In this document: piece after piece, positions 1 through 18,690 of the stretch
Layout of the letters: every line of letters starts with the position of its first letter
How positions within the stretch are numbered: the stretch's first letter is position 1
Virus record (IMG/VR): IMGVR_UViG_3300020207_000018
Coordinates: 58,375-78,374 of that record
Origin: an uncultured virus (IMG/VR IMGVR_UViG_3300020207_000018)
Lineage: Duplodnaviria; Heunggongvirae; Uroviricota; Caudoviricetes
Reading direction: 5' to 3' (one strand)
Length of the DNA: 20,000 nucleotides
Made by a program: the position numbers and the translations under genes
The notes under the pieces: model-generated
Databases searched by the model: none
What the model was told of the DNA's origin: nothing
The model's input: only the letters and a program-made list of their open reading frames with translations

Positions 1-3000
1 TGGTACAATTGTGACACTAACAATTCTATCGTTACGTGTTTCAACTAACTCTTCTACAACCGATGTTCTAACACCTGTTCTGATCTGAGACTCAGGTGTT
101 TCTGTTACATTTCTTGTAACAGTAGTATTAGGTGTATATTCACCACCTTGTGAAGGATCACCGTTCCAAGCTGCTGGAACACTTGATAATGTCTCTGTCT
201 CTACAACTGTAGGTTCACCTACCCATGTAGTCTGCCATGCGTTCCAAACAGTGCCTAATGCGTTTTCGTTCTCTGCTAATACTGCATCGAAGTTGCCTTC
301 TCTGTTAACTCTTACTTCTGGTAATTGTTCTGTGTCTTGCCAGATGTCTGTCTCTGGACTTAGTTTAACGTGACCAATAAATGCAAACACAGCGTATGGG
401 TTAACATTTAATGACCTAGATGCCTTATTTTGATTAACAAATGATCTTTCTGTATATGGTAATGTGATAATATCACCAGACTTCTTATAGTTACGTGACA
501 ATGCTGAGTTAGCAATGATATCAAAGAACTGAGTATGGTGTTTAGGTCTTAATTGACCTAGTTTTGTATCGATAGCACATTCATAGTCTGGATGTGAAAC
601 ATCACCAATCTTATGACCTCTAAAGTTATCTACTAAGAAGCCTGATTTATATCTGTCAAATCCGTCTGCATCTAAAATTTGTTTTGATTGTGTATCTTTT
701 TCTAATAAAGATAGTGCTGTAATTCTTTCAATGTTTGTAAGTCTTTGGTTTATTCTACCAATATCTTTCATCGTATATCTACGATGATCAAATTGTTTTA
801 AATTGATTTCTTTTAAGTTTGATGTGTAAGCAGGTATGAACAATTCGAACATTTCAATTGCATCATCTAACTGATTTGGTTTTTGAGGACTAATATCAGG
901 ATAACCAATAGAAACTTCAAACTTACCATTTCTAGTTAAGAATACTTTATCAATTCTAGGTACATAGAAATCTATATCTGCTGTCACTGAAGATGTAGGC
1001 ATTGGACATGAAATTGTTCCATTGTCGACATCGTTAAACACCCTTGATGTGTATACAAATGGTGCAGCTGTTACTTTTGTATTATCTGATAAGTTTAATG
1101 GATCGTTCTGATCATAAGCATTTGTATCATCATCTTGGAAATTAGTGCCAGGTAAAAAGTCTGTTGATGGTCTAAAGTCTACTGCATCTGATAATTCGAA
1201 CTTACCGTCTGGTTCAAAACCACCTAAGTCTACTTTATTTGGTGAGTAATTTGGTATATCTTTGTACTCAACATCAGCACTGTTATAAGAATTTACTGAG
1301 TAGTAATCTCCTGTACCACCTCTACTAAACATGTCAAAGATAACAGTCACAGGATTGTTAGGTGCTGATCTACCTTGTTTTAAAACTAGTTTTGAGAAGT
1401 CATAATAACCATCTCTTTGGCCATTGTCTAAGAAATAGTTGTTCTTAATGTTTGGTGAACCTGCACTTAAGTTTGATAGTACAGCGATACCTGAACTTGT
1501 TTGGCCAACAATTGTCTCACCGTCAATGAAAGGTATATCATTTAAGTATACAAAGTATGATGTGTTTGTATCACCACCCCAATTGATCAATAATGCTCTT
1601 GCTGTTGATGATTGACCTACAATCTCTTCTTTTAATGCAAAAGAACCTGAACTTATTGTTACAGTTGCGTTTGGTGGTGTTGCCTGACTATTTGAACCTG
1701 AAGTTGTGCCTGGAACTGCCTCTAAAACTGCATGTATTTTATAGACATCTGGTACACATAGATTCAATTCTTTGTGATCGTATGCAAGACCATAGAAAGG
1801 TTTATCACTATTAGATGATCTAAATGAAACTGATCTGAATTTTTCTAAAGCTTTTGACTTTACAGCAGGTGCTGTTCTCTTAACAGTATAAGTTGCTAAT
1901 ATTTGAGCACCTGATCCTGAATCACTGAATGTAACATCTAATGAAGTACCTGGTGTACCAAAAGTTACATCGTCTGCGACTAACACGTCACCTAATGCTA
2001 CGACATCACCAGTTCCGTTTAGTGATAATTTAGTAAATTGATATTTGTCATCACCAAAGTCTGAGAATGTTTCGTCTGACTCTTTTGTCAAAGTGATTGT
2101 ACCATTTGACATTGAGAACAGTCCTTGTTTTCTGACTTCTACTGTTCCTGTTGGTGTTACATCTGAAACGTAATCTCTAGGCCATGCAAATATATTTGAT
2201 GTCTGATCTTGGTCTGCAAGTTTTGCTCTTTTTCTGATAACTGCTACTTGTGTTGCCGCTGAAGGTGTCACTGCACCACCAGCTGTTGTAACTACATTTA
2301 ACGATGTATCGTTAGTAACAACTGAAACTCTATGTTCTGTACCATTAACAACGATATGATCACCAACTTTTACTTCTTTAGTAAACTGTGAACCAACACC
2401 TTGTAATTCATTTGTTGAGCCATTAAATGTACCTAAACCAGATATTACTGATATATCATCTAATACTACATCGGCACTAAAGTCTAGTCCTACGCTAGCA
2501 GGTGAAACTTGACCGACTGAGTGAGATTGACTTACATTAAAGACCTGAACACTAGTTGATGCTACTGCTGATGCAGTTCCCTTACCTCTAACTGATACAT
2601 TATTACCTGATACAAATTGTCCTACTACATCATGTAGATAAATGTTATTACTATCGACATATGCAACAATACCTGTTGCGCCTGTAATATCGTCTGTTAG
2701 TTTATCACCGTTAGCATATAATGTTGAGGTTGCTGTTGTAACTCCAACTTTAGTAAACATTTTAATATCAAATAGATATAATTGATATTCATCTGTAGCT
2801 GACTCATCAAAATGTCTAACTCTTGCAAAACCAATATTCTCTGCACTACCACTTAATGCTGATGCAGAAGATTTAGGTAGACTGTAAAGTTTGATTGGTT
2901 CGAAAGCATTTGTTGAAGCTGAATCACCAATTTCTGGCATTCCATAAATGTTGTTGATTTTTAATTTATTACCTATTCTAACTGGTGTTGATGCGTTAGA

Positions 3001-4155
3001 TAGTTCTGCTGTTGTTCTTGCTTTATTAATTGTTAGGTTTGATGTACCTGCTTTTTCAATTTCGTATCCTCTAACATAAGCTTTACCAGCAGATATCTGC
3101 ATGATAAACTTCTCTTCTTGTCCGCCTTCTGCTATTGGATAAAACCCTTTGTTATCTGAAGTTTTTAAATGTTCTCTGAAATTACTAGTAAATGGTCTTA
3201 CAACAAAATCGCCATTGGCATCAAAGGTTCTTCGTGCCATAGTATTTTCTATTTCAGAATAGATTGGTCTATTGATTGATAGTTCAATGATACCATTGTT
3301 AACTCTTGCTAATTCAATGAAGTTAACACTTGTAGTATCTGTTAGTGCTACTTTAGATAATGTAAGATCAAATTTTAATCTATCGGCACCAGGCGCATTA
3401 TCGTTTGATGAGCCTTGTGCATTGTCTAAGAGACTATTATCTTCTGTTGATGATATGATAGTTTCATTGATAGAAAGACCAACTCTATATGAAGGATTAC
3501 CTGCATATTTTTCTAATACGATAAGTTGTTTGTCTACCTTTACAAAGAAACCTCTTGTAAAAACTACACCTTCTGAAATTTCTGCAATTGAAGCACGACC
3601 AGTTGGTGTTGATGATTGTGATAATGTTTTAAAGTAGTTGTTGTTTGTTGCTACAGCAGAAGTTGATCCAAAACCGTCAGCTGAGAATTCTACTTCTCTT
3701 ATTTCTTCTGAACCTTTGAATATAAAAGAACCATCGCTGTCTGTACCTTGTGATAATGCTTTTACAAATAGTGTTATAGAATCATCTTCAGTTTCAGCAG
3801 TTGATGAAATAACTTTTGCTACTACACCTGTTGTTAAACCTTGAATGAGTTTGCCGTGAAAACTAGTTCTATAAGATTCTACGTTTAGATCGCCGTTTGC
3901 ATTTGGATTTGAATTTTGTACTTTGACAAAATAGATGTCCATGTCAATGTTTGACTGAGCACCTGAAACAATAGAACCTTCTTTAAAGAAATGATCACCA
4001 AATTTCTCTACCTGATCTTGTAGAATAGATTGAGTTTGAGTTAACTCTCTCGCTTGAATTGGTCGACCAGCACGATACAGAACTTTATGAAATTTCTTGT
4101 CTGCATCGTAATCATCGTAATATGGTGTAATATTTAGATCCGTTTTCTCTGACAT
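1..4155 (-). CDS. Large virion structural protein, DUF4815/VrlC-like (baseplate/tail-associated); 3' end truncated by the window edge, >=1385 aa
   Basis: Not in the ORF track because it is open-ended. Manual translation from ATG at 4155 gives MSEKTDLNITPYYDDYDADKKFHKVLYRAGRPIQARELTQTQSILQDQVEKFGDHFFKEGS. In-frame internal motifs include NYFLDNGQRDGYYD (~1400-1440) and HRRYTMKDIGRINQRLTNIERITALSLLE...DGFDRYKSGFLVDNF (~620-790). The same frame is open at position 1 (...NDRIVSVTIVP); I translated sampled blocks, not every codon. These motifs and the position after gp8 match the VrlC-like protein of marine T4-like phages. Confidence 0.88.
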   Translation of the reverse strand, partial: MSEKTDLNITPYYDDYDADKKFHKVLYRAGRPIQARELTQTQSILQDQVEKFGDHFFKEGSIVSGAQSNIDMDIYFVKVQNSNPNANGDLNVESYRTSFHGKLIQGLTTGVVAKVISSTAETEDDSITLFVKALSQGTDSDGSFIFKGSEEIREVEFSADGFGSTSAVATNNNYFKTLSQSSTPTGRASIAEISEGVVFTRGFFVKVDKQLIVLEKYAGNPSYRVGLSINETIISSTEDNSLLDNAQGSSNDNAPGADRLKFDLTLSKVALTDTTSVNFIELARVNNGIIELSINRPIYSEIENTMARRTFDANGDFVVRPFTSNFREHLKTSDNKGFYPIAEGGQEEKFIMQISAGKAYVRGYEIEKAGTSNLTINKARTTAELSNASTPVRIGNKLKINNIYGMPEIGDSASTNAFEPIKLYSLPKSSASALSGSAENIGFARVRHFDESATDEYQLYLFDIKMFTKVGVTTATSTLYANGDKLTDDITGATGIVAYVDSNNIYLHDVVGQFVSGNNVSVRGKGTASAVASTSVQVFNVSQSHSVGQVSPASVGLDFSADVVLDDISVISGLGTFNGSTNELQGVGSQFTKEVKVGDHIVVNGTEHRVSVVTNDTSLNVVTTAGGAVTPSAATQVAVIRKRAKLADQDQTSNIFAWPRDYVSDVTPTGTVEVRKQGLFSMSNGTITLTKESDETFSDFGDDKYQFTKLSLNGTGDVVALGDVLVADDVTFGTPGTSLDVTFSDSGSGAQILATYTVKRTAPAVKSKALEKFRSVSFRSSNSDKPFYGLAYDHKELNLCVPDVYKIHAVLEAVPGTTSGSNSQATPPNATVTISSGSFALKEEIVGQSSTARALLINWGGDTNTSYFVYLNDIPFIDGETIVGQTSSGIAVLSNLSAGSPNIKNNYFLDNGQRDGYYDFSKLVLKQGRSAPNNPVTVIFDMFSRGGTGDYYSVNSYNSADVEYKDIPNYSPNKVDLGGFEPDGKFELSDAVDFRPSTDFLPGTNFQDDDTNAYDQNDPLNLSDNTKVTAAPFVYTSRVFNDVDNGTISCPMPTSSVTADIDFYVPRIDKVFLTRNGKFEVSIGYPDISPQKPNQLDDAIEMFELFIPAYTSNLKEINLKQFDHRRYTMKDIGRINQRLTNIERITALSLLEKDTQSKQILDADGFDRYKSGFLVDNFRGHKIGDVSHPDYECAIDTKLGQLRPKHHTQFFDIIANSALSRNYKKSGDIITLPYTERSFVNQNKASRSLNVNPYAVFAFIGHVKLSPETDIWQDTEQLPEVRVNREGNFDAVLAENENALGTVWNAWQTTWVGEPTVVETETLSSVPAAWNGDPSQGGEYTPNTTVTRNVTETPESQIRTGVRTSVVEELVETRNDRIVSVTIVP

Positions 4156-4193: not shown

Positions 4194-5717
4194 TTACATT
4201 TCAATGATCAGTTTGATATCTTCAATCTGATCGGCTGCCCTTGACACAGGACCTCTATTCTCAACATAGAGAATATCACCAGTAAATCTTCTCATCTCTG
4301 GATGATCTGCATCTACACCAGCGGCATTCACTGAAGTTACAATTGAACCAGAAGCATTGATGTAAATATCATCATTGTTTTGGAACAATATAAACTCACC
4401 ACCGCCATTTGCTATCGGTTGATAACTTATAATATTACCTGACTTAGATACAACTCTACCAACTGCTGTTGATGCGTTGTTTGTTGTACTATCTGTTATA
4501 ATATCATCTACTGATATACCTGAAGCACTACCAACTGTAATTCTATTTGTTACAGTCATTGTTGATAGTGTTGAAATAGCACCGTCTGAGTCTTGTAAAG
4601 GATTTTTAATTAGACCAATTTGTCTAAAATCGTTGTCTGTTGGGAAATCACCTGAGCCTTCGCCAAACTCTAATCTTGAGTTTACTACTACGAAGTTACC
4701 GCCTAGTTCGTCAACTGGATTTGCACCATGACCACCAATTGGTGACATTACAACGTGAACTTCTGCACCTGAACCTGATGCTATAGGTGTAGCAGCTGAG
4801 TCATCTACGATGTTTGCATCGATAGTATCTAATGATGCACGTCTGTAACCTGAACCGTATGATGATGAATCTTTAAAATATGCATCTACTAATTCACCTG
4901 AGTCAAATGATAATGTTACAACAGCACCTGAACCGTCACCTTGGACTGGAATGTCACATGTGAATGTACTTGAACCTCCACTTGTCGCAGTATAACCTGA
5001 ACCAGCAGATTTAACAATATATCTAAACACTGCACCGTCAACCGCATCGTTTTCTACATCCCATTGAGCAGAACCGTCATCGGTTGCTGATGAACCGAAT
5101 CCACCGTTTGTACCGATACCAGCAATTCCTGATTTAGCACCGAGAGTCTTTACAGGAATAAAATCGTTAGTTACAAATTTAATAACATCTGAGGCAGTAA
5201 TTTGATACATAAATTTCCACATATATCCGTCTGAGGTAGTTTCAGGATCAGTGGTACTAACTGAAGTTGGTTGGTCTGTTGAATTAACGGGATTTACACC
5301 GCTATAAGGTGTTTTTAAACACTTATAGACTTTATATTCGTCTGTAATTATATAACCCTTACCATCAAACCAGTTCACTATTGAACCGTCTGAACTTGAA
5401 GGTACTGCTGTACCTACACCGTAATCGTCTCTATACTCGTCATATACTGTACCTGATGTCCAGTCATATCTTACAAGTCCGTGTGATACATCACCTGAAG
5501 AAACTTGTTTAAGAGCAATCATATTTGATTGTGCTCCTAATATTTCCTCTACTGAATTGTTTGGACTTGGTGGGTTATTATCGTCAATTGATGAATCATC
5601 AGCATCTACCCATGCGTGTGATCTACCAATGAATATGTAATTTTTAGAATCGCTGAAATCTGCAACAAATTCTTTTGCATTGTGCGTTCTAAAATTCTCT
5701 AAAATTATTGCTGCCAT
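4194..5717 (-). CDS. gp8: Baseplate wedge subunit gp8-like
   Basis: N-terminal MAAIILENFRTHNAKEF..YIFIGRSHAW, RYDWTSGTVYDEY, YKVYKCL, DGYMWKFMY, DFIPV; C-terminal NDFRQIGLIKNP and GDILYVENRGPVSRAADQIEDIKLIIEM. Lies after gp7. SD GAGGAG at 5733-5728. Confidence 0.92.
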   Translation of the reverse strand: MAAIILENFRTHNAKEFVADFSDSKNYIFIGRSHAWVDADDSSIDDNNPPSPNNSVEEILGAQSNMIALKQVSSGDVSHGLVRYDWTSGTVYDEYRDDYGVGTAVPSSSDGSIVNWFDGKGYIITDEYKVYKCLKTPYSGVNPVNSTDQPTSVSTTDPETTSDGYMWKFMYQITASDVIKFVTNDFIPVKTLGAKSGIAGIGTNGGFGSSATDDGSAQWDVENDAVDGAVFRYIVKSAGSGYTATSGGSSTFTCDIPVQGDGSGAVVTLSFDSGELVDAYFKDSSSYGSGYRRASLDTIDANIVDDSAATPIASGSGAEVHVVMSPIGGHGANPVDELGGNFVVVNSRLEFGEGSGDFPTDNDFRQIGLIKNPLQDSDGAISTLSTMTVTNRITVGSASGISVDDIITDSTTNNASTAVGRVVSKSGNIISYQPIANGGGEFILFQNNDDIYINASGSIVTSVNAAGVDADHPEMRRFTGDILYVENRGPVSRAADQIEDIKLIIEM

Positions 5718-5736: not shown

Positions 5737-5755
5737 TATTTATAAACTATTTATA
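5737..5755 (-). promoter_or_regulatory. Two tandem T4-type late promoters (TATAAATA) upstream of gp8
   Basis: The plus strand has TATTTATA at 5737-5744 and 5748-5755, i.e. two perfect TATAAATA boxes on the minus strand. The distal one overlaps the gp7 stop codon. Confidence 0.85.
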
Positions 5756-8700
5756 ATGCTGCTAGGGTTGAATTGGTAACTTTTGATGAAGAAACATAGG
5801 TAGAATGAGCTATATTAGTTCGTCTGTTCGCATATAGAGGTAATTCTGCTATATACATTAACCCTAATAGGTTATCTAACTGACTAATTCTTAGTCCTTC
5901 ACTCTCGCTAGTTTCATCCAACATGAAACCTCCGCCACTTTCTAAAAGTATTCTATCACCAAAGTCTGGTTCTGTATTGATATTGTTTACAATATTTGAT
6001 GCGTTGCCAGATTCTTGGTGGATATGATATGCTATCTTATAAGTTTGTTGATACGCAATCTTATTTAGTGATCTAAATGTAGACCCTATAGGAGCAAAAC
6101 TATGTAAGTTACTACCTGAACCTAATCTTTCGTCTGTTATTGGATTGCCATCTTCAAAAATCATTCTATCACCATTTTCCATATAGAAGTATGGTTCGTA
6201 CATTTCTGCCGATCTTTCAGTTACGAAATACTCTGGCATTTCTGGTACAGTTTCATCTTCTAATTCAACTACTAAACCACTTATGTCTTCATAACCACTT
6301 GTTGCTGGGTTGTATGAATCAGGATCATTAGGGTCACTTAATTCGTAAATCTTTGCATGATCTTCAAATACGATTCTTGGACCAACCTCATCTCTGTTTT
6401 GTGGTTCATGGTTTAGATAGTTTCTTGGTTCTTCACTTCTAAAGAGATTGCCGTCTTCTAATGCTATTCTTTCATCTAAGAACTCTGCAAATTGGAACAC
6501 TGTACCTTGATCTGAAGGTCTAGCACCAATTGGTGACACCGCATCTTCTTTAGTCATAATCAGATAGTCTCTATCAGTGTTGTATAAGTTCAATACTGAT
6601 ACTACGCCATCTAATCTTGGTGATCTTTGATTTGATATTGTTATTTCTTCTGCAACTGGATCATGTGATATATTTTGATATTGTTTCTGTGATACAGGAT
6701 CAATTGCTGAAATACCACTGTACCTCGATCTAAGTTTAGACTTAAGTACAGCACTAATTAATGTTCTTACTGAGTTTATATTTAAATGTCTGTTTCTATG
6801 TGACGAATCTCCATACTCAGTTAATGGTTCTGTGATTGCGCCGTCTGTTCTTGGGTCTGTACCTGTTGTAGGTATGCCCGCTTCATCTAAGTTGATTTGC
6901 ATTGCTAAATCTTCTAACTCAGATGCTGTAGTATGGAATAATACTAATGTTTCTTTCTTAGTAGATGCTTTAGCCTCGAATGCCTGTTCATTTTCAATAT
7001 AGTAACCATCTTCTGTTAATATTTTGAACTTTCTTTGTTTTACATTGATAAGATTAGGGTCTTGACCTGTATCTAAGTAACCTAGTGTTGCATCATCTGG
7101 ATCTGCATCTTCTAATAATAAATGTTCTGAAGCATAAGTTGTAAGTAGTATAGTTGGTACGAATGTTGTATTCTGAATACCAAGTGTGTTTTTAGGATCG
7201 ACTGTAAATCTTCCGTCTCTATCGTCTTGTACGATGTATCTATCAAGTGCAACTTCACCAAAGAAAATGTGGCCAGATGGATGGACTAAATCTTTAACTG
7301 CCGATCTATACGCATTGATTGATTCACCAACTTTAATCACATATGAATGTGATTGATAGAATAGACCATCGTGTATGTTAGTTGTATCGCTAGATACATA
7401 ACCTTTATTGCCGAAGAAGTTATCGTTTATTACACCTTCACCAGCATATTCACCTCTTGCTTCGTATGGGTCATATCTCAATACTTCAAAGTATTGTCCG
7501 TTTGCATAATCAATAAATTCGTTTTCAGCAAATGTACCACTTACATTTGTAAACTTAAGTAAATTTCTTTGTTCATCAAATGATATTACCTCACCTGTTG
7601 CACCAGATTTTCTGCCAGTAAACGTTACACCTTTTGTTAAATCAGCTACAGCAGTTGGATTACCAATCAACATATTGTAATATGAATCACCGCCTAAAAC
7701 TGCATGTTCATCAAAGTTATAACCTTGTGATGTGATTCTGATCTTGCCAACACCACCGACCTTAGATGACCAAGCAAATAGACTTGCACCTTCACCTGCT
7801 GTGACTGTTGATTGTTTAATTGTGCCTTCTGTACCAGAAGAAGAACCTGTTATGATATCTGAAGTTACAAAGTGACCTATATTAGATTCAGTCTTTTTAA
7901 TTACAAGTCTTTTGTTCTTTGAATCAATACGTGATATAACACCGTTTGCAGTAGCAGCCTGATTGGTTACAGTTTCACCAACTGTAAAACTATCGTAGTT
8001 ATCTACATAAATGTAACCACCTGGAAATACTCTAGGTAGTGTTTGATATCCTGTACCACCTGAAGTAATTGCTATTCTTCTAATTCTCTGATCATTATCT
8101 GGATTATTACCATCTTCGATCATGACAACTGAACCATTGACGCCAGTTGTTGTTTGTTCTAAAGTAACTCTAGTAAACTCTGATATTAATTCAACTCTTT
8201 CACCACCAGCAGGTGTTGGTGATGTGTCAAATACCACTCTATCTAAAAAAATTGTATAGTTTTGTCTGCTCTGTTCTATACCATCTACAAACACTTTAAC
8301 TTGTAGACCATTCAGTGCGATAGGTTTATTATTTAAATCTCTTGCACCTAAACCACCAAATGTAGTTTGACCAGCAGTTGCAGTAAATTCGTACTGATCA
8401 AATGCTGTAGCGTTTTCTAAAATAAGTTCGTCACCAGTAGCAGCTATTATCGCTTCTGCACCAGCACCCTCTGTACCTGCTTCTTCAAATACAATAATAT
8501 CGTTTGCTGAATAACCTGTACCTGCATTTTCAATGTATATGTGTTCTATTGGACCTCTAGTCAATTCTGATACAGTTGCTACTGCATCTATTTCACTAGC
8601 ATCTACTTTTGAACCTGTGAATCTAATTTGATCGTTTAGATCATACATTGATCCAACTCTTGCACGTTCAAATAATAACCCACCGCCCATCTCTGATTCG

Positions 8701-9836
8701 GTATTTGGGTTACTTTCTGTATAACCAGAAGAGGCATTTCCTGATTCGTATCTTAAACTACCTGAATTGTCTTCTAATTGAAAATAAGTGCCTGAGTCAT
8801 CTTTTTTGACTTGAGATATGATACCTGTTAAAGTACCTGTATAAATTGTGACACCATCTCTATCTACAAGTTTAACTTGTTTGTTTGGTTGAAATGTGCC
8901 TCTGTGTGTTCTGGAAATTGTAAGTTGATACTGTCTGTCTATTTCAGATATAATACCAACCTTTTCAACGATTGCTTCAGCAACTACTAAAGTTGCATCA
9001 TCATCGCTGTATTGTAATATTTTGTCAGTCTCTTTTGGCACTTGGCCAACTGACATGATGACATTACATTGTCTTTCTTCTTCGTACTCTGACTCTGAAG
9101 CAAAGAATGTTTCTTCTATAGGATATCTAACAGAAGAAGATTCACCATATAGAATTCTCATTAAGAATTGTATGGACTTTTCAGTACCTTTCTCTTTGTA
9201 TAAAGTACCTATGTTCTTTAATGTAAGTCTAGGATTTTGTGTGTCTCTCAGATTAAGAGACGGTATAAAATCTTTTTGAAAGTATTTTAAAAATGTTTCT
9301 AATGTTCTATCAATATCAGAATAGTCTAGTAATCTATTTGATGCGACAATACTATTTTCTTTGTATGTTTTAACAACACCTGTTTGATTGCCTGATCTAC
9401 CAACAATAGTTTCACCTACTGTGAAACCATTTCCTGATATTGTATCAACTAAAAATGTTTTATCATTTATAACTCTAATCTTAGCGATTGAACCACTAGA
9501 TTGACCATAAATGTATTCATCTTTAGTAAAAGGGTCTGATTGAATATCAGACAATGATGAGGCGTTGAGAAGTATCTTTGATGAGTCTGCTTCTGGATTG
9601 CCTGCAAAAGTATTCTTTTCAAAAAGGATGGCACCCCTTTCTTTCTGAGTGCCGTCCTCTAATCGAATGCCGTCTAGTGCTTGAATACTATCAAGCACTA
9701 GAATTTCGGACTCTAAGTACTCAAAATACGCCTCTAAAAAACTTTCAAATACAGGTGCATCTTCTCTTAAATGATCTGGTAAGAGAGATGGTAACCTCGT
9801 TGATAGTCTGTCATAGACGTGATTTTGATGAGACAT
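5751..9836 (-). CDS. gp7: Baseplate wedge initiator gp7-like, with inserted modules and a long acidic C-terminal extension
   Basis: N-terminal LPDHLREDAPVFESFLEAYFEYLE, LKNIGTLYKEKGTEKSIQFLMRILYGE, and IHDGLFYQSHSYVIKVGESINAYRSAVKDLVHPSGHIFFGEV (HPxG motif, ~aa 852). Lies between gp6 and gp8. Confidence 0.85.
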   Translation of the reverse strand: MSHQNHVYDRLSTRLPSLLPDHLREDAPVFESFLEAYFEYLESEILVLDSIQALDGIRLEDGTQKERGAILFEKNTFAGNPEADSSKILLNASSLSDIQSDPFTKDEYIYGQSSGSIAKIRVINDKTFLVDTISGNGFTVGETIVGRSGNQTGVVKTYKENSIVASNRLLDYSDIDRTLETFLKYFQKDFIPSLNLRDTQNPRLTLKNIGTLYKEKGTEKSIQFLMRILYGESSSVRYPIEETFFASESEYEEERQCNVIMSVGQVPKETDKILQYSDDDATLVVAEAIVEKVGIISEIDRQYQLTISRTHRGTFQPNKQVKLVDRDGVTIYTGTLTGIISQVKKDDSGTYFQLEDNSGSLRYESGNASSGYTESNPNTESEMGGGLLFERARVGSMYDLNDQIRFTGSKVDASEIDAVATVSELTRGPIEHIYIENAGTGYSANDIIVFEEAGTEGAGAEAIIAATGDELILENATAFDQYEFTATAGQTTFGGLGARDLNNKPIALNGLQVKVFVDGIEQSRQNYTIFLDRVVFDTSPTPAGGERVELISEFTRVTLEQTTTGVNGSVVMIEDGNNPDNDQRIRRIAITSGGTGYQTLPRVFPGGYIYVDNYDSFTVGETVTNQAATANGVISRIDSKNKRLVIKKTESNIGHFVTSDIITGSSSGTEGTIKQSTVTAGEGASLFAWSSKVGGVGKIRITSQGYNFDEHAVLGGDSYYNMLIGNPTAVADLTKGVTFTGRKSGATGEVISFDEQRNLLKFTNVSGTFAENEFIDYANGQYFEVLRYDPYEARGEYAGEGVINDNFFGNKGYVSSDTTNIHDGLFYQSHSYVIKVGESINAYRSAVKDLVHPSGHIFFGEVALDRYIVQDDRDGRFTVDPKNTLGIQNTTFVPTILLTTYASEHLLLEDADPDDATLGYLDTGQDPNLINVKQRKFKILTEDGYYIENEQAFEAKASTKKETLVLFHTTASELEDLAMQINLDEAGIPTTGTDPRTDGAITEPLTEYGDSSHRNRHLNINSVRTLISAVLKSKLRSRYSGISAIDPVSQKQYQNISHDPVAEEITISNQRSPRLDGVVSVLNLYNTDRDYLIMTKEDAVSPIGARPSDQGTVFQFAEFLDERIALEDGNLFRSEEPRNYLNHEPQNRDEVGPRIVFEDHAKIYELSDPNDPDSYNPATSGYEDISGLVVELEDETVPEMPEYFVTERSAEMYEPYFYMENGDRMIFEDGNPITDERLGSGSNLHSFAPIGSTFRSLNKIAYQQTYKIAYHIHQESGNASNIVNNINTEPDFGDRILLESGGGFMLDETSESEGLRISQLDNLLGLMYIAELPLYANRRTNIAHSTYVSSSKVTNSTLAAL

Positions 9837-9838
9837 AA

Positions 9839-10321
9839 TTAGCTAACTGTTACTGTGCCTCTACCGCCAGATGCTAGATGGTACCATAACGAACCAATAC
9901 CAATTAAAACAACTGAAGTATCAGATTCTAATGAAACTGAATCAGTAGTTGTACCAGTATTCCAACCTGTTGCGTTAACGTTTAAGTCTTGAGCAACGTT
10001 GTCATCTTTTCTGACAATAATTTTAAGTTGACCTTCATGTGAAGGAGCATCTAAAGTCATAGAAACTGCTGTACCACCACCGTAACCAGTGAAGTCAACA
10101 ATTGATACTGCTTCTGATGCTTCAATCTCTGTTGAAGATTCATCCAATGTTTCAACATCGTTAAATGCTAAAAATGATGGAACATTATTGAATAACCTTT
10201 TTAAGGTCATGTTCTTGTTTATAGGTGTTCCTGAAGGATCGTCAACGATGTGAAGTAAATCACCTTCGTTAATTTGTGCTTCACCTATTAAACTAAGCGC
10301 TGTTATTTTTTTATCTGCCAT
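9839..10321 (-). CDS. Hypothetical small virion protein (MADKKITAL-type N-terminus, beta-rich C-terminal domain)
   Basis: 160-aa ORF with a strong SD (AGGAGGA, 10335-10329) and a stop 2 nt before the gp7 ATG. The N-terminus MADKKITALSL...DLLHIVDDPSGTPINKNMT resembles, from recall, N-termini of phage fibre/decoration proteins. Confidence 0.8.
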   Translation of the reverse strand: MADKKITALSLIGEAQINEGDLLHIVDDPSGTPINKNMTLKRLFNNVPSFLAFNDVETLDESSTEIEASEAVSIVDFTGYGGGTAVSMTLDAPSHEGQLKIIVRKDDNVAQDLNVNATGWNTGTTTDSVSLESDTSVVLIGIGSLWYHLASGGRGTVTVS

Positions 10322-10392: not shown

Positions 10393-12264
10393 TTAATAAT
10401 TTGTGTTGGATGTAGAAGTGTATCCTACACCAGCACTACTCTCACCACTTGCGATGGTGTCTACTTCGCCGTCTACGTTTATATCATCGACACTGATATC
10501 AATTAGAGAACCTCTAACTGCAACAACATCGTTGCTAGAAGGTAGAACTGTGAAGTCGATTGAGGTATCACTATTGGTTGTACCAGTGATAGTGATGGCA
10601 TCAATCGTAATCTTTCCTGTACCATAATCTATGGTACCTGCCTCGTAATCTTTTATAGTTCTAACACCAGAAGCTAAAACATATCTTCTGATCTTACCTG
10701 ATCCGTCATCATCAAAGAAATGATCGTTGACTGAATCGCCTTGTACTTTGAAACCAGATGATACTAAAATACCACCACCTGCTTTATTGTGTCCGTCATG
10801 AGGATGGTAGAAACCATTTCCAAATTTGATTTCTAATCCTTTTTGTTTGTTTAATTCTACCTTTTGAGATTTTCTCAATCTAATGTTTGTTGAGTTAGAT
10901 AGAATCGATCCCTCTGATTCATCAATTGCTTTGACTAATTTTGAATGTCTAAAGATTGAATCAAAGTTACTTAAATTTGTATTGTCGAAATTTACGATAG
11001 CAGCTCTAACTACTGATTTCATTTCTCCAATTGAGAGTTGAGTAGCACGTGAATCGTATTTAAATACAGTTGTTACCAGAATCTTAACAATGTCTGCATC
11101 AACAATTACTGGTTTAACTGTAACCATGTTTAATGCATTTAGTTTTTTGATAACATCTGCTTTTTCAAACTCAGACAAATAATCTGAGTTTTGTGGTTTA
11201 AGTGACAAGAAGACTTTACCATAATCAGGTGGATCGTTATCTTCACCACCCCAAACTGCAACTGCATCGGCGTTTGGATAGTATTCACTTACTTTTGCTT
11301 TATAGTCGTTCAATGTGACCAATCTGTTTTGTGATGTGTAGAATTTTGTTGCTTTAAATTTAATAGAATCTATTGATTCTTTTTCAGCACCACCTGTTGC
11401 TTCAGTTACAGTTGTAACAGTAGCACTTATAAAACCATTGATTGGTTGTGTAAGTGTAAATCTTTTGGCACCCTCAGCATGTTCTAAATCAACTACTACA
11501 TAAACTGCATTGATGATATCACCATCTAATAGTTGATTACCAAGAACACCATCACCAAAATAAAACTCTACAAATCCTTCTTCGTTTTCTTGTGTATAAA
11601 AAACTTTAGATGATGAAGATATCGTAGAAATACTTTTAGCATCTACATACGTTTCTTCAACACCGTTTGAAATAACAGTGACTACTAATTTACTTTTATC
11701 AACTCTTTCATTTGATAAAACAAACTTTGAGTTTTTAATTTGTGAATCAAAAACAAATTGATCTGTTACGTATTGACCTTGAACAAGTTCTATATTATTC
11801 CAATTGAAACTTTTATTTGATCTTGTAGGAGTGATTGATGATGTGCAAACAAAATTGTATGCTACATTGTCATAGATAGTTGTGAATTGTTGACCTCTTG
11901 ATAATGTCATATCGCTTGGTGTAGGGATTGTACCATCTGCGTTAACAACATTATCCATTTGCATATTGACATAAGCAGCTGATGCCTTCTCAGATGCAGG
12001 TACAAAACCTAAATCTTTAGCACGTGATACAACGTTCTTTCTCAGTTGTGCTGAATCTAAGAACATTTCTGAAGCTGCTATGTTTGTATTGATTGCACCG
12101 ATGTGAGATGCATATGCTAACATGTCAATAAGAACTGACATGGTCGAACCTTCGAAGTTATAGTCTTTGAATAACTCTTGTCCTTTTAAATATGATTTAA
12201 TATTACTTACGATATCATCAAAATCTTGATCTGTTGTATTAATTTGTGAACTCTTTACTGCCAT
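10393..12264 (-). CDS. gp6: Baseplate wedge subunit gp6
   Basis: DFDDIVSNIKSYLKGQELFKDYNFEGSTMSVLIDMLAY, EMFLDSAQLRKNVVSRAKDLGFVP, FYFGDGVLG, GGAEKESIDSIK...SQNRLVTLNDY, WGGEDNDPPDYGKVFLSLKP and GTIDYGTG are canonical gp6/baseplate-J motifs; 623 aa. Confidence 0.96.
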   Translation of the reverse strand: MAVKSSQINTTDQDFDDIVSNIKSYLKGQELFKDYNFEGSTMSVLIDMLAYASHIGAINTNIAASEMFLDSAQLRKNVVSRAKDLGFVPASEKASAAYVNMQMDNVVNADGTIPTPSDMTLSRGQQFTTIYDNVAYNFVCTSSITPTRSNKSFNWNNIELVQGQYVTDQFVFDSQIKNSKFVLSNERVDKSKLVVTVISNGVEETYVDAKSISTISSSSKVFYTQENEEGFVEFYFGDGVLGNQLLDGDIINAVYVVVDLEHAEGAKRFTLTQPINGFISATVTTVTEATGGAEKESIDSIKFKATKFYTSQNRLVTLNDYKAKVSEYYPNADAVAVWGGEDNDPPDYGKVFLSLKPQNSDYLSEFEKADVIKKLNALNMVTVKPVIVDADIVKILVTTVFKYDSRATQLSIGEMKSVVRAAIVNFDNTNLSNFDSIFRHSKLVKAIDESEGSILSNSTNIRLRKSQKVELNKQKGLEIKFGNGFYHPHDGHNKAGGGILVSSGFKVQGDSVNDHFFDDDGSGKIRRYVLASGVRTIKDYEAGTIDYGTGKITIDAITITGTTNSDTSIDFTVLPSSNDVVAVRGSLIDISVDDINVDGEVDTIASGESSAGVGYTSTSNTNY

Positions 12265-12683
12265 TACCTTACCCTACTTACGGTTAATTCTATGTTTTGT
12301 GCTCTTGATGCATTTCTGATTGTATAAAAAATTCTAACATTCATCTCATTAGTATCTTCATCATTCAATCCAATTTTAACGTTGTAGACTCTTGGTTCGT
12401 ACAACTCAATCATTTCTGCTAATCTTTTAGCAAATTTTTCTTTTGATCTCTCAGTACGCAACTCAAATAGTTGATCTCTAAGAGAGGCACCAAAGTTTGG
12501 TTTAAAAGGTCTTTCAAATTTATTTGTTAAGACTATGTTACGGACCGATCTTTTAATTGCATCTGTATCTTTTTTAGTCATTATATCACCAGTAATTGGG
12601 TGAGCAACAAAAAGAGCATCAAGATCAGAATATGATTCTTTTACTGCATTAACTTTGGCATTTGGTTTTAGATACTCGGTCAT
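12264..12683 (-). CDS. gp25: Baseplate wedge subunit gp25 (sheath initiator)
   Basis: YSDLD...HPITGDI...DAIKRSVRNIVLTNKFERPFKPNFGASLRDQLFE...IELYEPRV is the gp25/GPW family pattern; TAATG overlap with gp6. Confidence 0.95.
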   Translation of the reverse strand: MTEYLKPNAKVNAVKESYSDLDALFVAHPITGDIMTKKDTDAIKRSVRNIVLTNKFERPFKPNFGASLRDQLFELRTERSKEKFAKRLAEMIELYEPRVYNVKIGLNDEDTNEMNVRIFYTIRNASRAQNIELTVSRVR

Positions 12684-12711: not shown

Positions 12712-14274
12712 TTATGTTGATACGATTGAAATTAATCCTCTATTTGGTGCTGTGTCGAAAATCACCAGTCTCAAAAGTGCATTTATTGAGTAATCTTCTG
12801 GTTCAACTATCTTGCCACTCACATATACTGAGAGATCGTTTACACTTACATCACTAGGTATACTAAATTCTGTTTGTCCTGAAGATGCAAATTCCTTATT
12901 AGTTGCTACTGCGTATACAGTCTTGCCTTCTCCAGCAGGACTATCAAGTGTGATAGATCCATCTTCATTTTCAGTAAAGTTTGATGTTCTCTGACCATCA
13001 ACTAAAACGTATTTGTTTCCACCTGTGCCTTCTGGTGTAAACGTAGTCTGCGACCCATTTGATTTTAACAATCCACCAGTCAATGCTAAAAGACTAGCAT
13101 CTTTGATTGTTTCTGGATGAATAGGTTTTGGTAAAGTCGCATTACTTATGTTAATTGCAAAAGGGAATCCTATTAGATTGAGTAAATCACAAAATGTAAA
13201 TGTTAAGAATTCAAAGATTTTTCCTAGACCGATTGCATCAAAGAACTTCTTCACAATCTTTACCCATTCCATTAATAACTTCTTCTGCCAATTTTGTTTG
13301 AAGTCTTCTAATGCTAGTTTGAACTCCATAATTTTCTCTTCTAAAGATGCAACATTCTCATCAATAAACCCACCAATAATACTTCTAACATTAAAACCGA
13401 AAAGACTAATATCTTCGATAGCACTTAATATGTCTGCATTAATTCTTGCTAACTCTTCTTCGAGTTTTTCTCTTGCTTCGCCTACTGCATTTTGGACTTT
13501 CTCTACTAACTTGTCTCTTTTTTCTCTTAGTTTTGCAATTGCTTTTTCAATCTCAGCACCCACATCTAAAGTAAACAATGCAATTAGATTAGGCAGTCCA
13601 AGTAAATCCCATATTTCATCGAACATGTCAATCAACTTACCAAAGATACTATGTAAACCGTTTGTTAGTAGTTCTTGTATTTTAGTTTTGATATACTGCC
13701 ATGTCATCTTTGCTTTCCACTCATTACATAATACACCAAAGTCTGCTTTGAATCCTTGAAACTCTTCGGCAACCTGTGCAAAGAACTTATCAACATCTTC
13801 TGCAATTTGAGTCTTGATTCTGAGTTGTTCTTCTTTAGTAAATATCTTTAGAAGATTGATTTCGATGCCAAGAACAGTTATATTAAAATCAAAAGGAATA
13901 AGTTTTGAGATAATTTCCATTATCTTCGTTGGAACATAGAGATGTAATTCCTGTAAGAGTTCAGTGATGGCATCTTTTGCTTCTTTTTGCCAATTACGAA
14001 TAGTGCCTTTTTGCCAATACGGAGATAGTATGTCTGCTATCTTTTCCATGAACTCAGAGATTTCATCTGATATTTTTTGTAATTCTTTTGCTACGTCTTC
14101 TGTTATCTCATCTTTCTTTTCCACTAAAAAAGATTTAATTTCACTTGGTATTTGTGCAATCTTATTGATTGCATTGAGTAACTCTTCTTTTGTAGGAAGA
14201 TTAAAGATATCACCTGGTGGGCATGGAAATGCCGAGGGGATTTGTGGTACATCATATGTTGGTGCTGTAGTCAT
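12712..14274 (-). CDS. Hypothetical protein: ~380-aa alpha-helical/amphipathic region plus two C-terminal 'G(S)QTxF' beta-modules
   Basis: 520-aa ORF translationally coupled to gp5 (TAATG at 14274). The N-terminal three quarters are L/I/K/E/F-rich and helical. The C-terminus has two ~60-aa repeats resembling a module in gp7. Confidence 0.85.
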   Translation of the reverse strand: MTTAPTYDVPQIPSAFPCPPGDIFNLPTKEELLNAINKIAQIPSEIKSFLVEKKDEITEDVAKELQKISDEISEFMEKIADILSPYWQKGTIRNWQKEAKDAITELLQELHLYVPTKIMEIISKLIPFDFNITVLGIEINLLKIFTKEEQLRIKTQIAEDVDKFFAQVAEEFQGFKADFGVLCNEWKAKMTWQYIKTKIQELLTNGLHSIFGKLIDMFDEIWDLLGLPNLIALFTLDVGAEIEKAIAKLREKRDKLVEKVQNAVGEAREKLEEELARINADILSAIEDISLFGFNVRSIIGGFIDENVASLEEKIMEFKLALEDFKQNWQKKLLMEWVKIVKKFFDAIGLGKIFEFLTFTFCDLLNLIGFPFAINISNATLPKPIHPETIKDASLLALTGGLLKSNGSQTTFTPEGTGGNKYVLVDGQRTSNFTENEDGSITLDSPAGEGKTVYAVATNKEFASSGQTEFSIPSDVSVNDLSVYVSGKIVEPEDYSINALLRLVIFDTAPNRGLISIVST

Positions 14275-15320
14275 TATGAATTAAGTTTAACAGTCTTACC
14301 ATTTATGTCAACGAGAGGTGCGGTGATAGTCGTTGATATACTTGATGAGATTTTCATTGCTTTATCTGAATGTATGTCTGCTTTTCCATCAATATCAATT
14401 TTAGCATCACCACCGATATCGATGGTAGCATCTCCTAAAATTTTAACATTACATTTACCGCCAATGTATACATTATCGTCTTTACATATGACCGTATAAT
14501 TATCGTTGACAACTCTATGTACTTCTGTTCCGTCTTTGTGTATCTCGTAGAAAGTACCTGATCTATGTGAGACTGCTAATCTCTCACCACCCACTGAGTC
14601 ATCCATTTCTATCATGTGACCTGATTCTGTGTGATGAACTTTATTAAAAGGATACAATGTCTTTGAACGATCTGGTTTAAAATCACCTAAATTTGGTAGA
14701 TCATCAAATTGAGTATAGATTGCACCGCCCTTAGCAAATCTGTTAAGATCGGATTCATTTTCATAATCTTTGAGAGGATAATATGGTCTTGTACCATCAA
14801 ACAATTCGCTATCAGATGATTCTTCTATTTTACTTCCTTTACCTTTGTAATCTATCTCTAATGCTTTTGGTAATCTTGGAGAATGTTCGATCTTTAATGT
14901 TAGTTCGTTGCCTCTTGACGGCAATTCTGGTGGGTTTAGACCGTCTAATGTACCAGAGTAATCTGTTCTTCTAGGATCATTGAAGCCTTTGTCGACTGAT
15001 CTATCTAACAATTCACCTGTGATAGTTTCTTTATAACCAGTCTGGTTAATACCCATGTTAACACCCATGACTACGAAGTCTTGCATGTCATCATCTCTAA
15101 ACATACCAAACACGGTAGAACCTTCGACTAATGAATGACCGTGACCAAAACCTGAAAATCCTATAGCAGTCGTTGGTAGAATAACTGTAGACCAAGGCAG
15201 ATCGGCAGAAGCTAATTGAGTTTTGTTATCCGTATGTACACTATGTACACGAACTCTAACACGACCTATCTGTAATGGGTCGTTTCTATCTTCAACTATG
15301 CCGTAAAAAAATCTAATCAT
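14274..15320 (-). CDS. gp5: Baseplate central spike gp5 (OB-fold plus short beta-helix; lysozyme domain absent)
   Basis: FFYGIVEDRNDPLQIGRVRVRVHSVHT...DLPWS...VEGSTVFGMFRD (gp5 OB fold), GFNDP, YPFNKVHHTESGHMIEMDDSVGGERLAVSHRSGTFYEIHKDG, then 8-residue repeats ending GKTVKLNS. Confidence 0.93.
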   Translation of the reverse strand: MIRFFYGIVEDRNDPLQIGRVRVRVHSVHTDNKTQLASADLPWSTVILPTTAIGFSGFGHGHSLVEGSTVFGMFRDDDMQDFVVMGVNMGINQTGYKETITGELLDRSVDKGFNDPRRTDYSGTLDGLNPPELPSRGNELTLKIEHSPRLPKALEIDYKGKGSKIEESSDSELFDGTRPYYPLKDYENESDLNRFAKGGAIYTQFDDLPNLGDFKPDRSKTLYPFNKVHHTESGHMIEMDDSVGGERLAVSHRSGTFYEIHKDGTEVHRVVNDNYTVICKDDNVYIGGKCNVKILGDATIDIGGDAKIDIDGKADIHSDKAMKISSSISTTITAPLVDINGKTVKLNS

Positions 15321-16797
15321 CGTTTATTGGTCCTTCATAGTTATCAAGTGCTTGGATATCTTCTATTTTGTTTTTGTAACTTTCAGGAACTACCATTAGA
15401 TTCATCATACCTCTATGTTGAGATGGTGTTACATTATGTACTATTTTAGTAATTAGATATCTGTTGTCATTTAAAATATTCTTATCGCCAGACACTTTAT
15501 GTTTAGGTAGAATTAGTGTTACAATCTGTCCTGCCATTATATCAGTTCTCATAGGTATAGTTACTGAAATGGCAAATTGAGATAAAAGATTCAACATAGC
15601 ATTTCTTTCTAAAATTGCATTGTCTCTGAATTCATTTCCAACTGGTTGTGTCTTTGCTGAATTTGTAGTATCGTCAATTAACTTAGCCTCGTCTGAGTAT
15701 GCATTTGTAGGATTTACTCTATACTCGATGTGACCACCTGACAAATATGTTTGATGTAATGGATAGTCAACAAAGATTTCTTGCGCTTCAGCTGTATCAC
15801 GTGAAACATCTGTACCTTCATGTGTTACTTCAAAATCGCCTGTACGTATCATTGCAAATCCTGAAAGATGAGAGTCTTTGTTTTTTTCAAAATTTTCTTT
15901 TAGATCAAAATAGTATTCAGCATCAAGTTTTCTGACAGGATCGTATGTTATTAATTTTGAAGAATATGCGCCGTCCTCTAAACCTCGAAATGTATTTCCG
16001 CTCTCTTGTGTATAAAAACTTAATATCTGAGTCGATAATCCTTCCGGACTTTCTGGTGCGTATTTTTCTTGGTCTATATCTGCGTTTCTAGGATAAAAAG
16101 TAAATGGTATCTCTTGTTCAAACTGACCATTTAACATCGAACCTAATGACATGAATTTAAAACCGCCATTTAGAGAACTGTATAAGAAACAACTATTTTT
16201 GTAAGGTCCTTTTATTTCAGGATCGGCATTGTCTACACAATAATTTATTGTTTTCATAATAGACCAATTTGTTGGAACTATTTGTTGTACACCTTTTGTT
16301 TTTTCCCACCATTCTATTTGATATTGTCTTGGTAGTTTTTCAAATTGAGCATCTTTGTTTAAAACCTTCAAAAGTATTTCAGACATTGAACCCCTCAACA
16401 CTCTATTGATTCTAACTTTTCTACACGTAAATAATTTTGGATCGACAAAATTTAATACATAAGTTTTAAGTTTTAAATCTACATCGTCTACATCTGATAC
16501 GCTGAAAACTCTAAAAGTTCTGTAGATAGAGTTCTCTTCTGTTGTGAATCCATCATCTGATACAACCGTTTTAACACGGTATTTGATAGTTAAACTTTCT
16601 TGACCTGTAATTTTATAATCTTCTAAAATTCCTAAACCATCTGCAACTGAAACACGACCAGAGAGAAAAGGACTATCGATAGATTCAAAGATGGTAATAT
16701 CAGTAACTAAATTTCTGATATCTACTGATTCTTGTTCTTGGTTGGTTAACATGACCATTTCGACAGTTAACTCACCTGGTAGGAAGTTTTGGCTCAT
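15313..16797 (-). CDS. Baseplate hub protein, gp27/gpD-like
   Basis: N-terminal ITIFESIDSPFLSGRVSVADGLGILEDYKITGQESLTIKY and C-terminal ISVTIPMRTDIMAGQIVTLILP...RYLITKIVHNVT (hub/VgrG-N-like ending). Lies between gp53 and gp5 and overlaps both. Confidence 0.7.
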   Translation of the reverse strand: MSQNFLPGELTVEMVMLTNQEQESVDIRNLVTDITIFESIDSPFLSGRVSVADGLGILEDYKITGQESLTIKYRVKTVVSDDGFTTEENSIYRTFRVFSVSDVDDVDLKLKTYVLNFVDPKLFTCRKVRINRVLRGSMSEILLKVLNKDAQFEKLPRQYQIEWWEKTKGVQQIVPTNWSIMKTINYCVDNADPEIKGPYKNSCFLYSSLNGGFKFMSLGSMLNGQFEQEIPFTFYPRNADIDQEKYAPESPEGLSTQILSFYTQESGNTFRGLEDGAYSSKLITYDPVRKLDAEYYFDLKENFEKNKDSHLSGFAMIRTGDFEVTHEGTDVSRDTAEAQEIFVDYPLHQTYLSGGHIEYRVNPTNAYSDEAKLIDDTTNSAKTQPVGNEFRDNAILERNAMLNLLSQFAISVTIPMRTDIMAGQIVTLILPKHKVSGDKNILNDNRYLITKIVHNVTPSQHRGMMNLMVVPESYKNKIEDIQALDNYEGPINDD

Positions 16798-18682: not shown

Positions 18683-18690
18683 TATTTATG
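18683..18690 (-). promoter_or_regulatory. Probable late promoter (CATAAATA) for the gp48 operon
   Basis: Plus-strand TATTTATG reads CATAAATA on the minus strand (7/8 match). It overlaps the gp4 start codon and lies 30 nt upstream of the gp48 ATG. Confidence 0.65.

Follow-up and report, generated by a model that had tools for sequence, protein, structure and literature searches.

The gp7-like baseplate wedge protein encoded in a 20,000-nucleotide window of an uncultured myophage genome (IMG/VR record IMGVR_UViG_3300020207_000018, positions 58,375–78,374) carries a repeated short strand motif that is enriched and conserved, lies mostly outside the confidently folded parts of the protein, and is linked to the gene of a neighboring 160-residue protein, here termed p160. 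A complex between one unit of three such strands, C5, and a p160 trimer is predicted, and the other seven or so units may also be docks, for more p160 or for other trimeric fiber proteins. That the motif represents one third of a homotrimer dock, with C5 holding p160 and the other units holding further trimers, perhaps the fiber-like proteins encoded past a giant neighboring gene, is on balance judged somewhat probable. Positions are given in coordinates of the window, that is, of the whole stretch analyzed, and residue numbers are those of the window gp7 (P0001) unless another protein is named.

In the arrangement proposed here, the short strands, composed of two or three hydrophobic residues followed by Glu and usually by Asp, Asn, or Ser and Gly at a tight turn, would act as docking strands that are flexible in free gp7 and grouped by threes. 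Each strand of such a unit would lie in its own groove of a homotrimeric accessory protein whose N-terminal segments leave three equivalent grooves between them, with the hydrophobic residues occupying the groove and the terminal Glu placed beside invariant Lys and Asn residues of the partner. One monomeric gp7 chain could thereby satisfy a threefold symmetric partner. Unit C5 (residues 1270–1308) would hold a trimer of p160, which is encoded directly upstream of gp7.

The gp7 gene, as defined by its open reading frame (ORF) and translation, spans 5751–9836 on the minus strand and encodes 1361 residues; the boundary at 5751 agrees with the original prediction, and the other boundary lies at 9836 rather than at 9700. 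All 15 peptide strings quoted there as copies of the motif are present in this translation, each once, between residues 56–63 and 1295–1308. Eight of the 15 follow the HPSG motif (residue 852) and fall within residues 862–1361, as expected from the claim that about half lie in a C-terminal extension. The figure of about 15 motifs is real as far as it goes and an undercount, as 27 conserved acid-terminated strands can be recognized. Comparison with 2000 composition-matched shuffles of gp7, which had been put forward as a check, bears out the enrichment: no shuffle reaches the observed number for the strict form, hydrophobic-x-hydrophobic-E-[DN]-G (five in gp7; shuffle mean 0.12), for the relaxed form ending in E-[DNS]-[GNA] (11; mean 0.46), or for the broad form ending in E-[DNSKR] (16; mean 3.16). 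The strict and relaxed motifs are absent from the other 12 proteins of the window, and gp7 accounts for 11 of the 16 relaxed matches among 78 mechanically called ORFs of at least 100 residues in the 78-kb contig. The gp7 of T4 is unenriched for the relaxed motif (1 versus 0.28 expected). The gp7 of Pelagibacter phage HTVC008M, which together with the Methylophilales Melnitz phages is the closest named relative (∼28% identity), has a few degenerate copies (relaxed form, 2 versus 0.26 expected; P 0.026).

Homologues of this gp7 are plentiful in metagenomic data, with more than 120 full-length copies at 39–54% identity. In alignments of 33 and 77 homologues, the neighbors of the motif Glu vary and the Glu itself shows little or no change. 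Among the 77 homologues used for counting (40–58% identity), an acid is kept in at least 69 at 25 of the 27 strands, the exceptions being positions 49 (41 of 77) and 574 (37 of 77), and Glu itself is kept in 74–77 of 77 at most sites. The terminal acid of the strands is, judging from these alignments, under purifying selection. In a set of 151 distinct full-length homologues, the mean number of hydrophobic-x-hydrophobic-E sites is 19.6 per protein, versus 10.3 in shuffles, and that of successive motifs spaced 8–9 residues apart is 2.58 per protein, versus 0.16 in shuffles, a 16-fold enrichment.

The 27 strands fall into nine groups of three, named N1–N4 and C1–C5, all encoded on the minus strand. 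Their placement in the N-terminal part can be followed on an AlphaFold2 model of P0118, a 1179-residue gp7 homologue that is 46% identical to the window protein and was modeled from the 77-row alignment. N1 (residues 44–75; 9612..9707) has strand ends at positions 49, 60 (IRLEDG), and 73 (ILFEKN); 76 of 77 homologues have an acid at E60 and at E73 (position 49 is one of the two exceptions), and the second and third strands map into the P0118 segment 53–87, for which the predicted local distance difference test score (pLDDT) is below 50. N2 (residues 351–392; 8661..8786) ends at E355, E364, and E390, which are acidic in 69, 77, and 77 of 77, and its block has a pLDDT of 52–61 with domains at 85–91 on both sides. 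N3 (residues 433–477; 8406..8540) ends at E436, E451, and E474, acidic in 75, 76, and 77 of 77; its first two strands sit in a folded domain (block pLDDT 84–85) and only E474 is in a low segment, and the model suggests that N3 is probably no dock. N4 (residues 546–577; 8106..8201) ends at E549, E560, and E574, acidic in 77, 77, and 37 of 77, of which E560 and E574 map to the P0118 segment 531–544 with pLDDT below 50.

The five remaining units belong to the C-terminal part. C1 (residues 905–950; 6987..7124) ends at E909, E942, and E948, acidic in 72, 72, and 70 of 77 homologues, and C2 (residues 1123–1145; 6402..6470) ends at E1127, E1135, and E1144, each acidic in 77 of 77. C3 (residues 1154–1208; 6213..6377) has ends at E1158, E1193, and E1207 (77, 74, and 77 of 77), C4 (residues 1216–1236; 6129..6191) has ends at E1220, E1228, and E1236 with a spacing of 8 and 8 (77 of 77 each), and C5, the predicted plug for the p160 trimer (residues 1270–1308; 5913..6029), has ends at E1275, E1299, and E1308 (76 of 77 each). 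The E-D-G turn is usually found on the middle strand of a unit, with the third strand 8–9 residues further on. Lineage-specific insertions in the extensions of related loci (L061:8833-10464, L075:8097-9545, and L051:3110-4648) add hydrophobic-Glu strands, mostly three each, and on the evidence of these insertions the three-strand unit looks like an evolutionary one.

Most of the strands lie in parts of the model that are predicted with low confidence. In P0118, the segments with pLDDT below 50 are 53–87, 348–353, 445–451, and 531–544 and nearly everything after 823. Six of the 12 strands of the N-terminal part, mapped through the alignment, fall into such segments, which make up 136 of 822 residues; two further strands are in blocks with a pLDDT of 52–61, and four, the first strands of N1 and N4 and two of N3, are in blocks with a pLDDT of at least 71. 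In the C-terminal part, 11 of 14 mapped strands are below a pLDDT of 50, and AlphaFold2 of window residues 800–1361 alone (42-row alignment) yields no fold (mean pLDDT 43.5; predicted template modeling score 0.20). Within the limits set by the shallow alignments, most motifs are thus not seen as buried strands of one self-contained fold. The placement originally proposed, in a low-structure extension and in loops between folded modules, holds for the majority and fails for the strands at 433–451, which belong to a confidently folded domain. The low pLDDT would be consistent with an extended loop outside the folded core, of the kind seen in TssG, and is not in itself proof of exposure.

The gene for p160 (P0122; 9839–10321, minus strand) lies directly upstream of gp7, and a homologue occupies that position in 75 of 75 related viral loci. 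This constancy makes the suggested comparison of motif count with the occurrence of p160 uninformative, p160 being present in every related locus. Among 40 homologues of p160, 26 columns are invariant, 21 of which are in residues 1–52, and the remainder of the protein varies; these N-terminal 52 residues (10166–10321, minus strand) form the predicted dock-binding part. The window copy matches no Pfam, PHROG, or NCBIfam family. The C-terminal head matches PF25692 Phage_depo_C in 22 of the 40 homologues at E up to 10 (best, 5.5e-05), the window copy being unmatched, and p160 is read here as an invariant N-terminal anchor followed by a variable β-sandwich head. A hidden Markov model of p160 residues 1–56 finds only p160 itself in the 78-kb contig, and of 50,697 phage records only six, those of HTVC008M and Melnitz phages, contain the p160 module; these are also the named phages with the closest gp7. 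Their p160 homologues (223 residues in HTVC008M and 150 in Melnitz), one in each, are annotated as hypothetical and are encoded far from the baseplate genes. A relationship of p160 to gp9 and gp10 (PF07880) was considered and, at the level of sequence, rejected: hhalign to T4 gp9 and gp10 gives probabilities of 0.1% and 0.5%, and 0 of 40 members have a Pfam match to that family; the sole lead in this direction is an ESM Atlas structure row (template modeling score 0.63) with PF07880 in 14% of its cluster.

A complex was predicted in three runs for gp7 residues 1100–1361, which include units C2–C5, with three copies of p160. The runs score 0.67, 0.71, and 0.77; the score taken is 0.71, and the best of three controls scores 0.00. 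The prediction passes a mark that, in calibration, 116 of 157 solved complexes and 2 of 215 mismatched pairs attained, counts that hold only roughly here, where own alignments and three copies were used. A fold of the motif region with the 160-residue protein as a trimer had been among the proposed tests, and in silico it turns out in favor of binding. Agreement among the three runs is at least 81% of contacts, and the partner has a pLDDT of at least 89. Searches by sequence for solved structures return no relative of gp7; the one match of p160, to a ketoacyl synthase (E 0.0017), is at chance level. Memory of a solved complex is therefore an unlikely source of the pass. The score supports binding of C5 to p160, short of showing it.

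As predicted, the interface comprises gp7 residues 1269–1312 (positions 470–513 of alignment A3) and p160 residues 1–8, 24, 26, and 29–35 of all three copies. Among the contacts of lowest error are those that E1275, E1299, and E1308 make with p160 residues 4–7, 24, 26, and 33–35 of the three copies. In the model, E1275 contacts residues 26, 33, and 35 of p160 copy 2 and residues 5–7 of copy 3; E1308 contacts residues 26 and 35 of copy 1 and residues 5–7 of copy 2; and E1299 contacts residues 26 and 35 of copy 3. This pattern suggests that each strand occupies one intersubunit groove and that the unit forms a pseudo-threefold plug. The predicted p160 contacts coincide with the invariant columns K4, K5, I6, H24, V26, P29, G31, P33, and N35. 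The idea that each motif is a socket of its own is not supported by this model, in which three strands jointly engage one trimer, with gp7 supplying the plug and the trimer the grooves. A multisite scaffold, as had been envisaged, is in keeping with in silico docking for one unit, and the number of candidate docks comes down from 15 to ∼8 per gp7.

Several observations weigh against units of three as homotrimer docks. All three runs picked C5 although C2, C3, and C4 were present in the same fragment; this argues against the units being equivalent as p160 sites, the others may not bind p160, and p160 seems, in these models, to have one preferred site on gp7. The gp7 side of the complex has an overall pLDDT of only 50–54, and one of ∼8 candidate docks has been folded with p160, in silico only. 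A single p160-type anchor is found per record in five of five relatives (records 45–83% complete), and no additional paralogue of p160 accompanies the extra units in lineages that have them. The strands were sorted into threes post hoc, the borders of the units are arbitrary or ambiguous between residues 1127 and 1236 (C2–C4), and a segment of L051 contains four strands rather than three. Confidently folded parts of the model take in two strands of N3 and the first strand of both N1 and N4. In addition, the strand-turn pattern occurs with Asp in place of Glu inside folded barrels of P0118 (residues 608 and 722; pLDDT 91–92), which brings the motif close to a generic hairpin signature. Finally, the alignments are shallow (42–77 rows), and low AlphaFold2 confidence may reflect failure of the method rather than flexibility.

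Some of these points would fit with strands that act as fold-on-assembly fasteners inside the baseplate, where each would pair with a domain of gp7 itself, a neighboring wedge, or gp6 or gp8, with p160 at most a special case. T4 gp7 is described as a hub that touches gp6, gp8, gp9, and gp10 (PMC3004832), and the four N-terminal strands already in folded domains, the ordinary hairpins formed by the Asp version, the single p160-type gene per record, and the uncontacted C2, C3, and C4 all favor such a role. Against it stands the confident and control-clean interface predicted between C5 and an accessory trimer. In the same account T4 gp6 and gp8 are dimeric, which leaves units of three unexplained, and the gp7 extension is clade-confined and gains and loses whole units, which is unusual for a core fastener. 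The fastener role is considered rather unlikely. Still a little less likely is an extension of homotrimer docking, in which gp7 is a modular “power strip” whose three-strand units are independent docks readable from sequence, ∼8 per chain and ∼48 per baseplate, that hold different fiber or decoration trimers from the adjacent host recognition cluster, so that lineages alter the valency and make-up of adsorption by gain or loss of whole units. Were it to hold, the accessory load of an uncultured phage baseplate would be predictable from its gp7 sequence.

The remaining explanations concern the chemistry or composition of the motif. Strand-end and turn Glu and Asp residues might coordinate divalent cations of sea water (Ca2+ or Mg2+) and so stiffen or cross-link flexible loops, a possibility raised by the invariant Glu followed by Asp in most units, by the acidity of the extension (isoelectric point 4.5), and by the marine habitat presumed from the relatives of the phage. 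The canonical D-x-[DN]-x-[DN]-G loop is absent from gp7, however (0 versus 0.13 expected), which leaves the Ca2+-binding hairpin first suggested without a loop of this kind to support it; Pfam scans (E up to 0.01 over the full length of gp7 and up to 10 over the extension) return no EF-hand, dockerin, or other Ca-binding family, and the Glu residues of the predicted interface point to Lys and Asn of p160 and not to each other, an arrangement that still leaves room for interface cations. Such a role is regarded as very unlikely. That the motif has no special function and simply follows from composition or a generic propensity for β-hairpins is suggested by the commonness of hydrophobic-x-hydrophobic patterns with an acid and a turn in hairpins, including those of folded gp7 domains, and is highly improbable given the shuffle counts, the lack of the motif in other β-rich virion proteins of the window, the specific retention of Glu amid varying neighbors, and the enriched spacing. 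The T4 prohead protease recognizes Leu/Ile-x-Glu and acts inside the prohead, where baseplate proteins are not found. The Glu after hydrophobic residues at the motif end recalls such processing sites, but the form [LI]-x-E-[AGS] occurs twice in gp7 versus 3.6 times expected, the residue after Glu is mostly Asp, and a baseplate protein does not meet the protease in the prohead; proteolytic processing is hardly credible here.

The assignment of the 1361-residue ORF as a divergent T4 gp7-type wedge protein is based on fold search and synteny. Foldseek with the P0118 model returns T4 gp7 (5iv5_BJ, probability 0.99), its counterpart in Klebsiella phage KP1 (9f4a_A0, probability 0.98, E 5.3e-04), and 5hx2_A (probability 0.89), and VIA gives Z scores of 9.4 and 9.2 over short alignments of 148 and 79 residues. 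A search by sequence for solved relatives of gp7 returned none. The Pfam family PF23786 Baseplate_wedge matches weakly at residues 816–860 (window 7257–7391; 20.5 bits against a cutoff of 27; profile 231–279) and at residues 199–242 of an N-terminal piece (window 9111–9242; 16.7 bits; profile 177–220), and PF23786.2 matches are precomputed for many of the listed gp7 homologues. From the two separate pieces, inserted β domains totaling ∼570 residues apparently divide the gp7 core in two. The P0118 model (mean pLDDT 61) has N-terminal helices predicted at residues 3–42 and confident β domains at 250–780 (pLDDT 85–93). Within gp7, a small β domain at residues ∼475–555 (window ∼8172–8414, minus strand; VIA Z 7–8.6 with the P0118 model) resembles the N-terminal virion-attachment domain of podophage tail fibers (T7 gp17, P-SCSP1u, LME-1, and HRP29), as well as the N-terminal domains of CBA120 TSP4 and a domain of the 607-residue KP1 baseplate chain 9f4b_FA.

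The order gp25, gp6, p160, gp7, gp8 is found in the window and in related loci wherever the flank is present. HTVC008M has gp25, gp6, a gp7-like ORF, and gp8, the third of which is annotated as “putative structural protein” and is identified by fold search and synteny as the counterpart of gp7 (L002:8983-12033). A 2020 survey describes pelagimyophages as having no T4 gp7 and VrlC in its place (PMC7029224). The ORF between gp6 and gp8, both here and in HTVC008M, is a gp7 relative, which corrects the absence of gp7 in that survey.

Past the conserved gp7 core, the C-terminal extension comprises residues 862–1361 (500 residues; 5754..7253, minus strand). It is more acidic than the rest of gp7 (Asp plus Glu 16.6% versus 14.1%; isoelectric point 4.5 versus 4.7) and matches no Pfam family at E up to 10 and no PHROG or NCBIfam family. 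With residues 801–1361 as the query against 1.84 billion representatives, 501 proteins match at E of at most 0.001 and only 35 at E of at most 1e-10; most of the listed matches weaker than 1e-10 cover only query residues ∼1–70, which belong to the conserved core. On these searches, the extension is apparently confined to one clade. Complete copies of gp7 in relatives range from 1145 to 1509 residues. BLASTP of gp7 against itself returns the self match only; recent duplication of a long domain is thus not the source of the units. The DNA coding for four G-x-R-I-x-x-E-D-G elements (5934–5961, 6147–6174, 6360–6384, and 6450–6477) is 68–82% alike over 25–28 nucleotides, and three of the four stretches are spaced 210–213 nucleotides apart; this likeness can be read as one peptide written in shared codon usage.

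The window as a whole covers the baseplate module of an uncultured marine T4-like myophage related to the pelagimyophage HTVC008M and to the Melnitz phages, the marine origin being deduced from these relatives. All genes of the module are on the minus strand: gp48 (17528–18652), gp53 (16794–17522), a 494-residue tail protein (15313–16797), gp5 (14274–15320), a 520-residue coiled-coil protein between gp5 and gp25 (12712–14274), gp25 (12264–12683), the wedge subunit gp6 (10393–12264; PF21379, E 2.7e-16; phrog_219, E 7e-164), p160, gp7, the wedge subunit gp8 (4194–5717; PF09215, E 4.3e-18; phrog_438), and the N-terminal 1385 residues of a DUF4815 protein (1–4155; PF16075, E 3.2e-69), whose full length of 2255 residues is known from the contig. 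The 520-residue protein has weak matches to tape-measure PHROGs and apolipoprotein-like repeats. Divergent from the baseplate genes, a 150-residue protein (18688–19140, plus strand) matches phrog_218 (T4 gp4 head closure; E 2e-56) and also PF08722, the N-terminal domain of TnsA-like endonucleases (E 4.8e-23).

The DUF4815 gene occupies the slot after gp8 in which HTVC008M carries its annotated VrlC, and the 2255-residue protein is a further candidate partner of gp7. After this giant gene, the contig continues with a run of fiber-like genes, and PHROG tail-fiber or structural matches are found on ORFs of 246, 275, 522, and 765 residues; candidate partners are thus plentiful. The survey of pelagimyophages names the region with fiber-like genes the host recognition cluster (PMC7029224). 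Two ORFs of this run lie outside the window on the minus strand: a 591-residue protein (L088:1180-2955) with a C-terminal Hint/intein-like domain (PF14890, E 5e-08, below the cutoff) and a 376-residue ORF (L088:38-1168) that starts with tandem short proline- and phenylalanine-rich repeats.

The clade to which this phage belongs consists of abundant uncultured marine myophages related to phages of SAR11 and OM43, and the literature searched contains no baseplate structure for it. Neither the motif nor the p160 family is described in that literature. The attachment of threefold symmetric fibers to a monomeric wedge has so far been solved case by case, and here a short, repeated, readable motif appears to answer it. 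If homotrimer docking is correct, the conserved 160-residue protein receives its first assignment, and fiber docks can be counted and located from metagenomic sequence alone.

A close parallel to the predicted complex is found in the baseplate of the type VI secretion system, which has a (TssF)2–TssG wedge. TssG is the gp7 counterpart of this wedge, two of its loops each insert three hydrophobic residues into a cavity of a TssK trimer, and that cavity is made by the N-terminal 15 residues of the trimer (PMC6300606). Similarly, three hydrophobic strands of one gp7 loop are predicted to rest on residues 1–8 of all three p160 copies. TssG differs in having two loops without a recognizable repeated motif, where gp7 here has ∼8 units of one motif with an invariant terminal Glu, and in having no 500-residue extension, which carries most of the gp7 units. 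In the searches run, p160 is unrelated to TssK, and the pairing of gp7 with p160 is a predicted one.

A second likeness is provided by cyanophage Pam3, in which the wedge protein gp23 has two “triangular platforms” of three Cys residues each that join the three Cys28 residues of a gp24 fiber trimer (PMC9942802). As in the present model, a monomeric gp7-like wedge presents three equivalent residues to three fiber subunits. The Pam3 attachment is by disulfides to an α-helical fiber N terminus, whereas the contact predicted here is noncovalent, through a hydrophobic strand and Glu, to a strand-like partner N terminus. A three-cysteine platform of the Pam3 type is not found in this gp7, the conserved strand residue being Glu rather than Cys. 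In the Anabaena myophage A-1(L), the C-terminal loop of the wedge protein gp32 (Val129–Glu151) helps to hold the shoulder of the trimeric long tail fiber (PMC10966104), and a gp7-like subunit again grips a trimeric fiber by a loop. The gp32 loop, as described there, is single and short, with no repeated motif or long extension.

The gp7 of T4 has both family and gene position in common with the protein described here and carries the trimeric gp9 and gp10 (PMC3004832). At 1032 residues, it is unenriched for the motif, and T4 gp9 and gp10 have no profile similarity to p160. In the cellulosome, scaffoldin is a long chain with many docking sites and flexible linkers, whose folded cohesins bind Ca-dependent dockerins one to one. 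The cellulosome analogy drawn in the original prediction survives as a functional likeness only: Pfam scans of gp7 contain no cohesin or dockerin family, the scaffold side here would be a short strand triplet, and the partner would be a trimer. The principle of a wedge protein that holds a threefold fiber is already known from TssG–TssK, Pam3, A-1(L), and T4. What these comparisons suggest to be new is a strand motif recognizable from sequence, with an invariant Glu, in ∼8 units on one chain and concentrated in a clade-specific extension, together with a predicted partner family, p160, that is unannotated even in cultured relatives.

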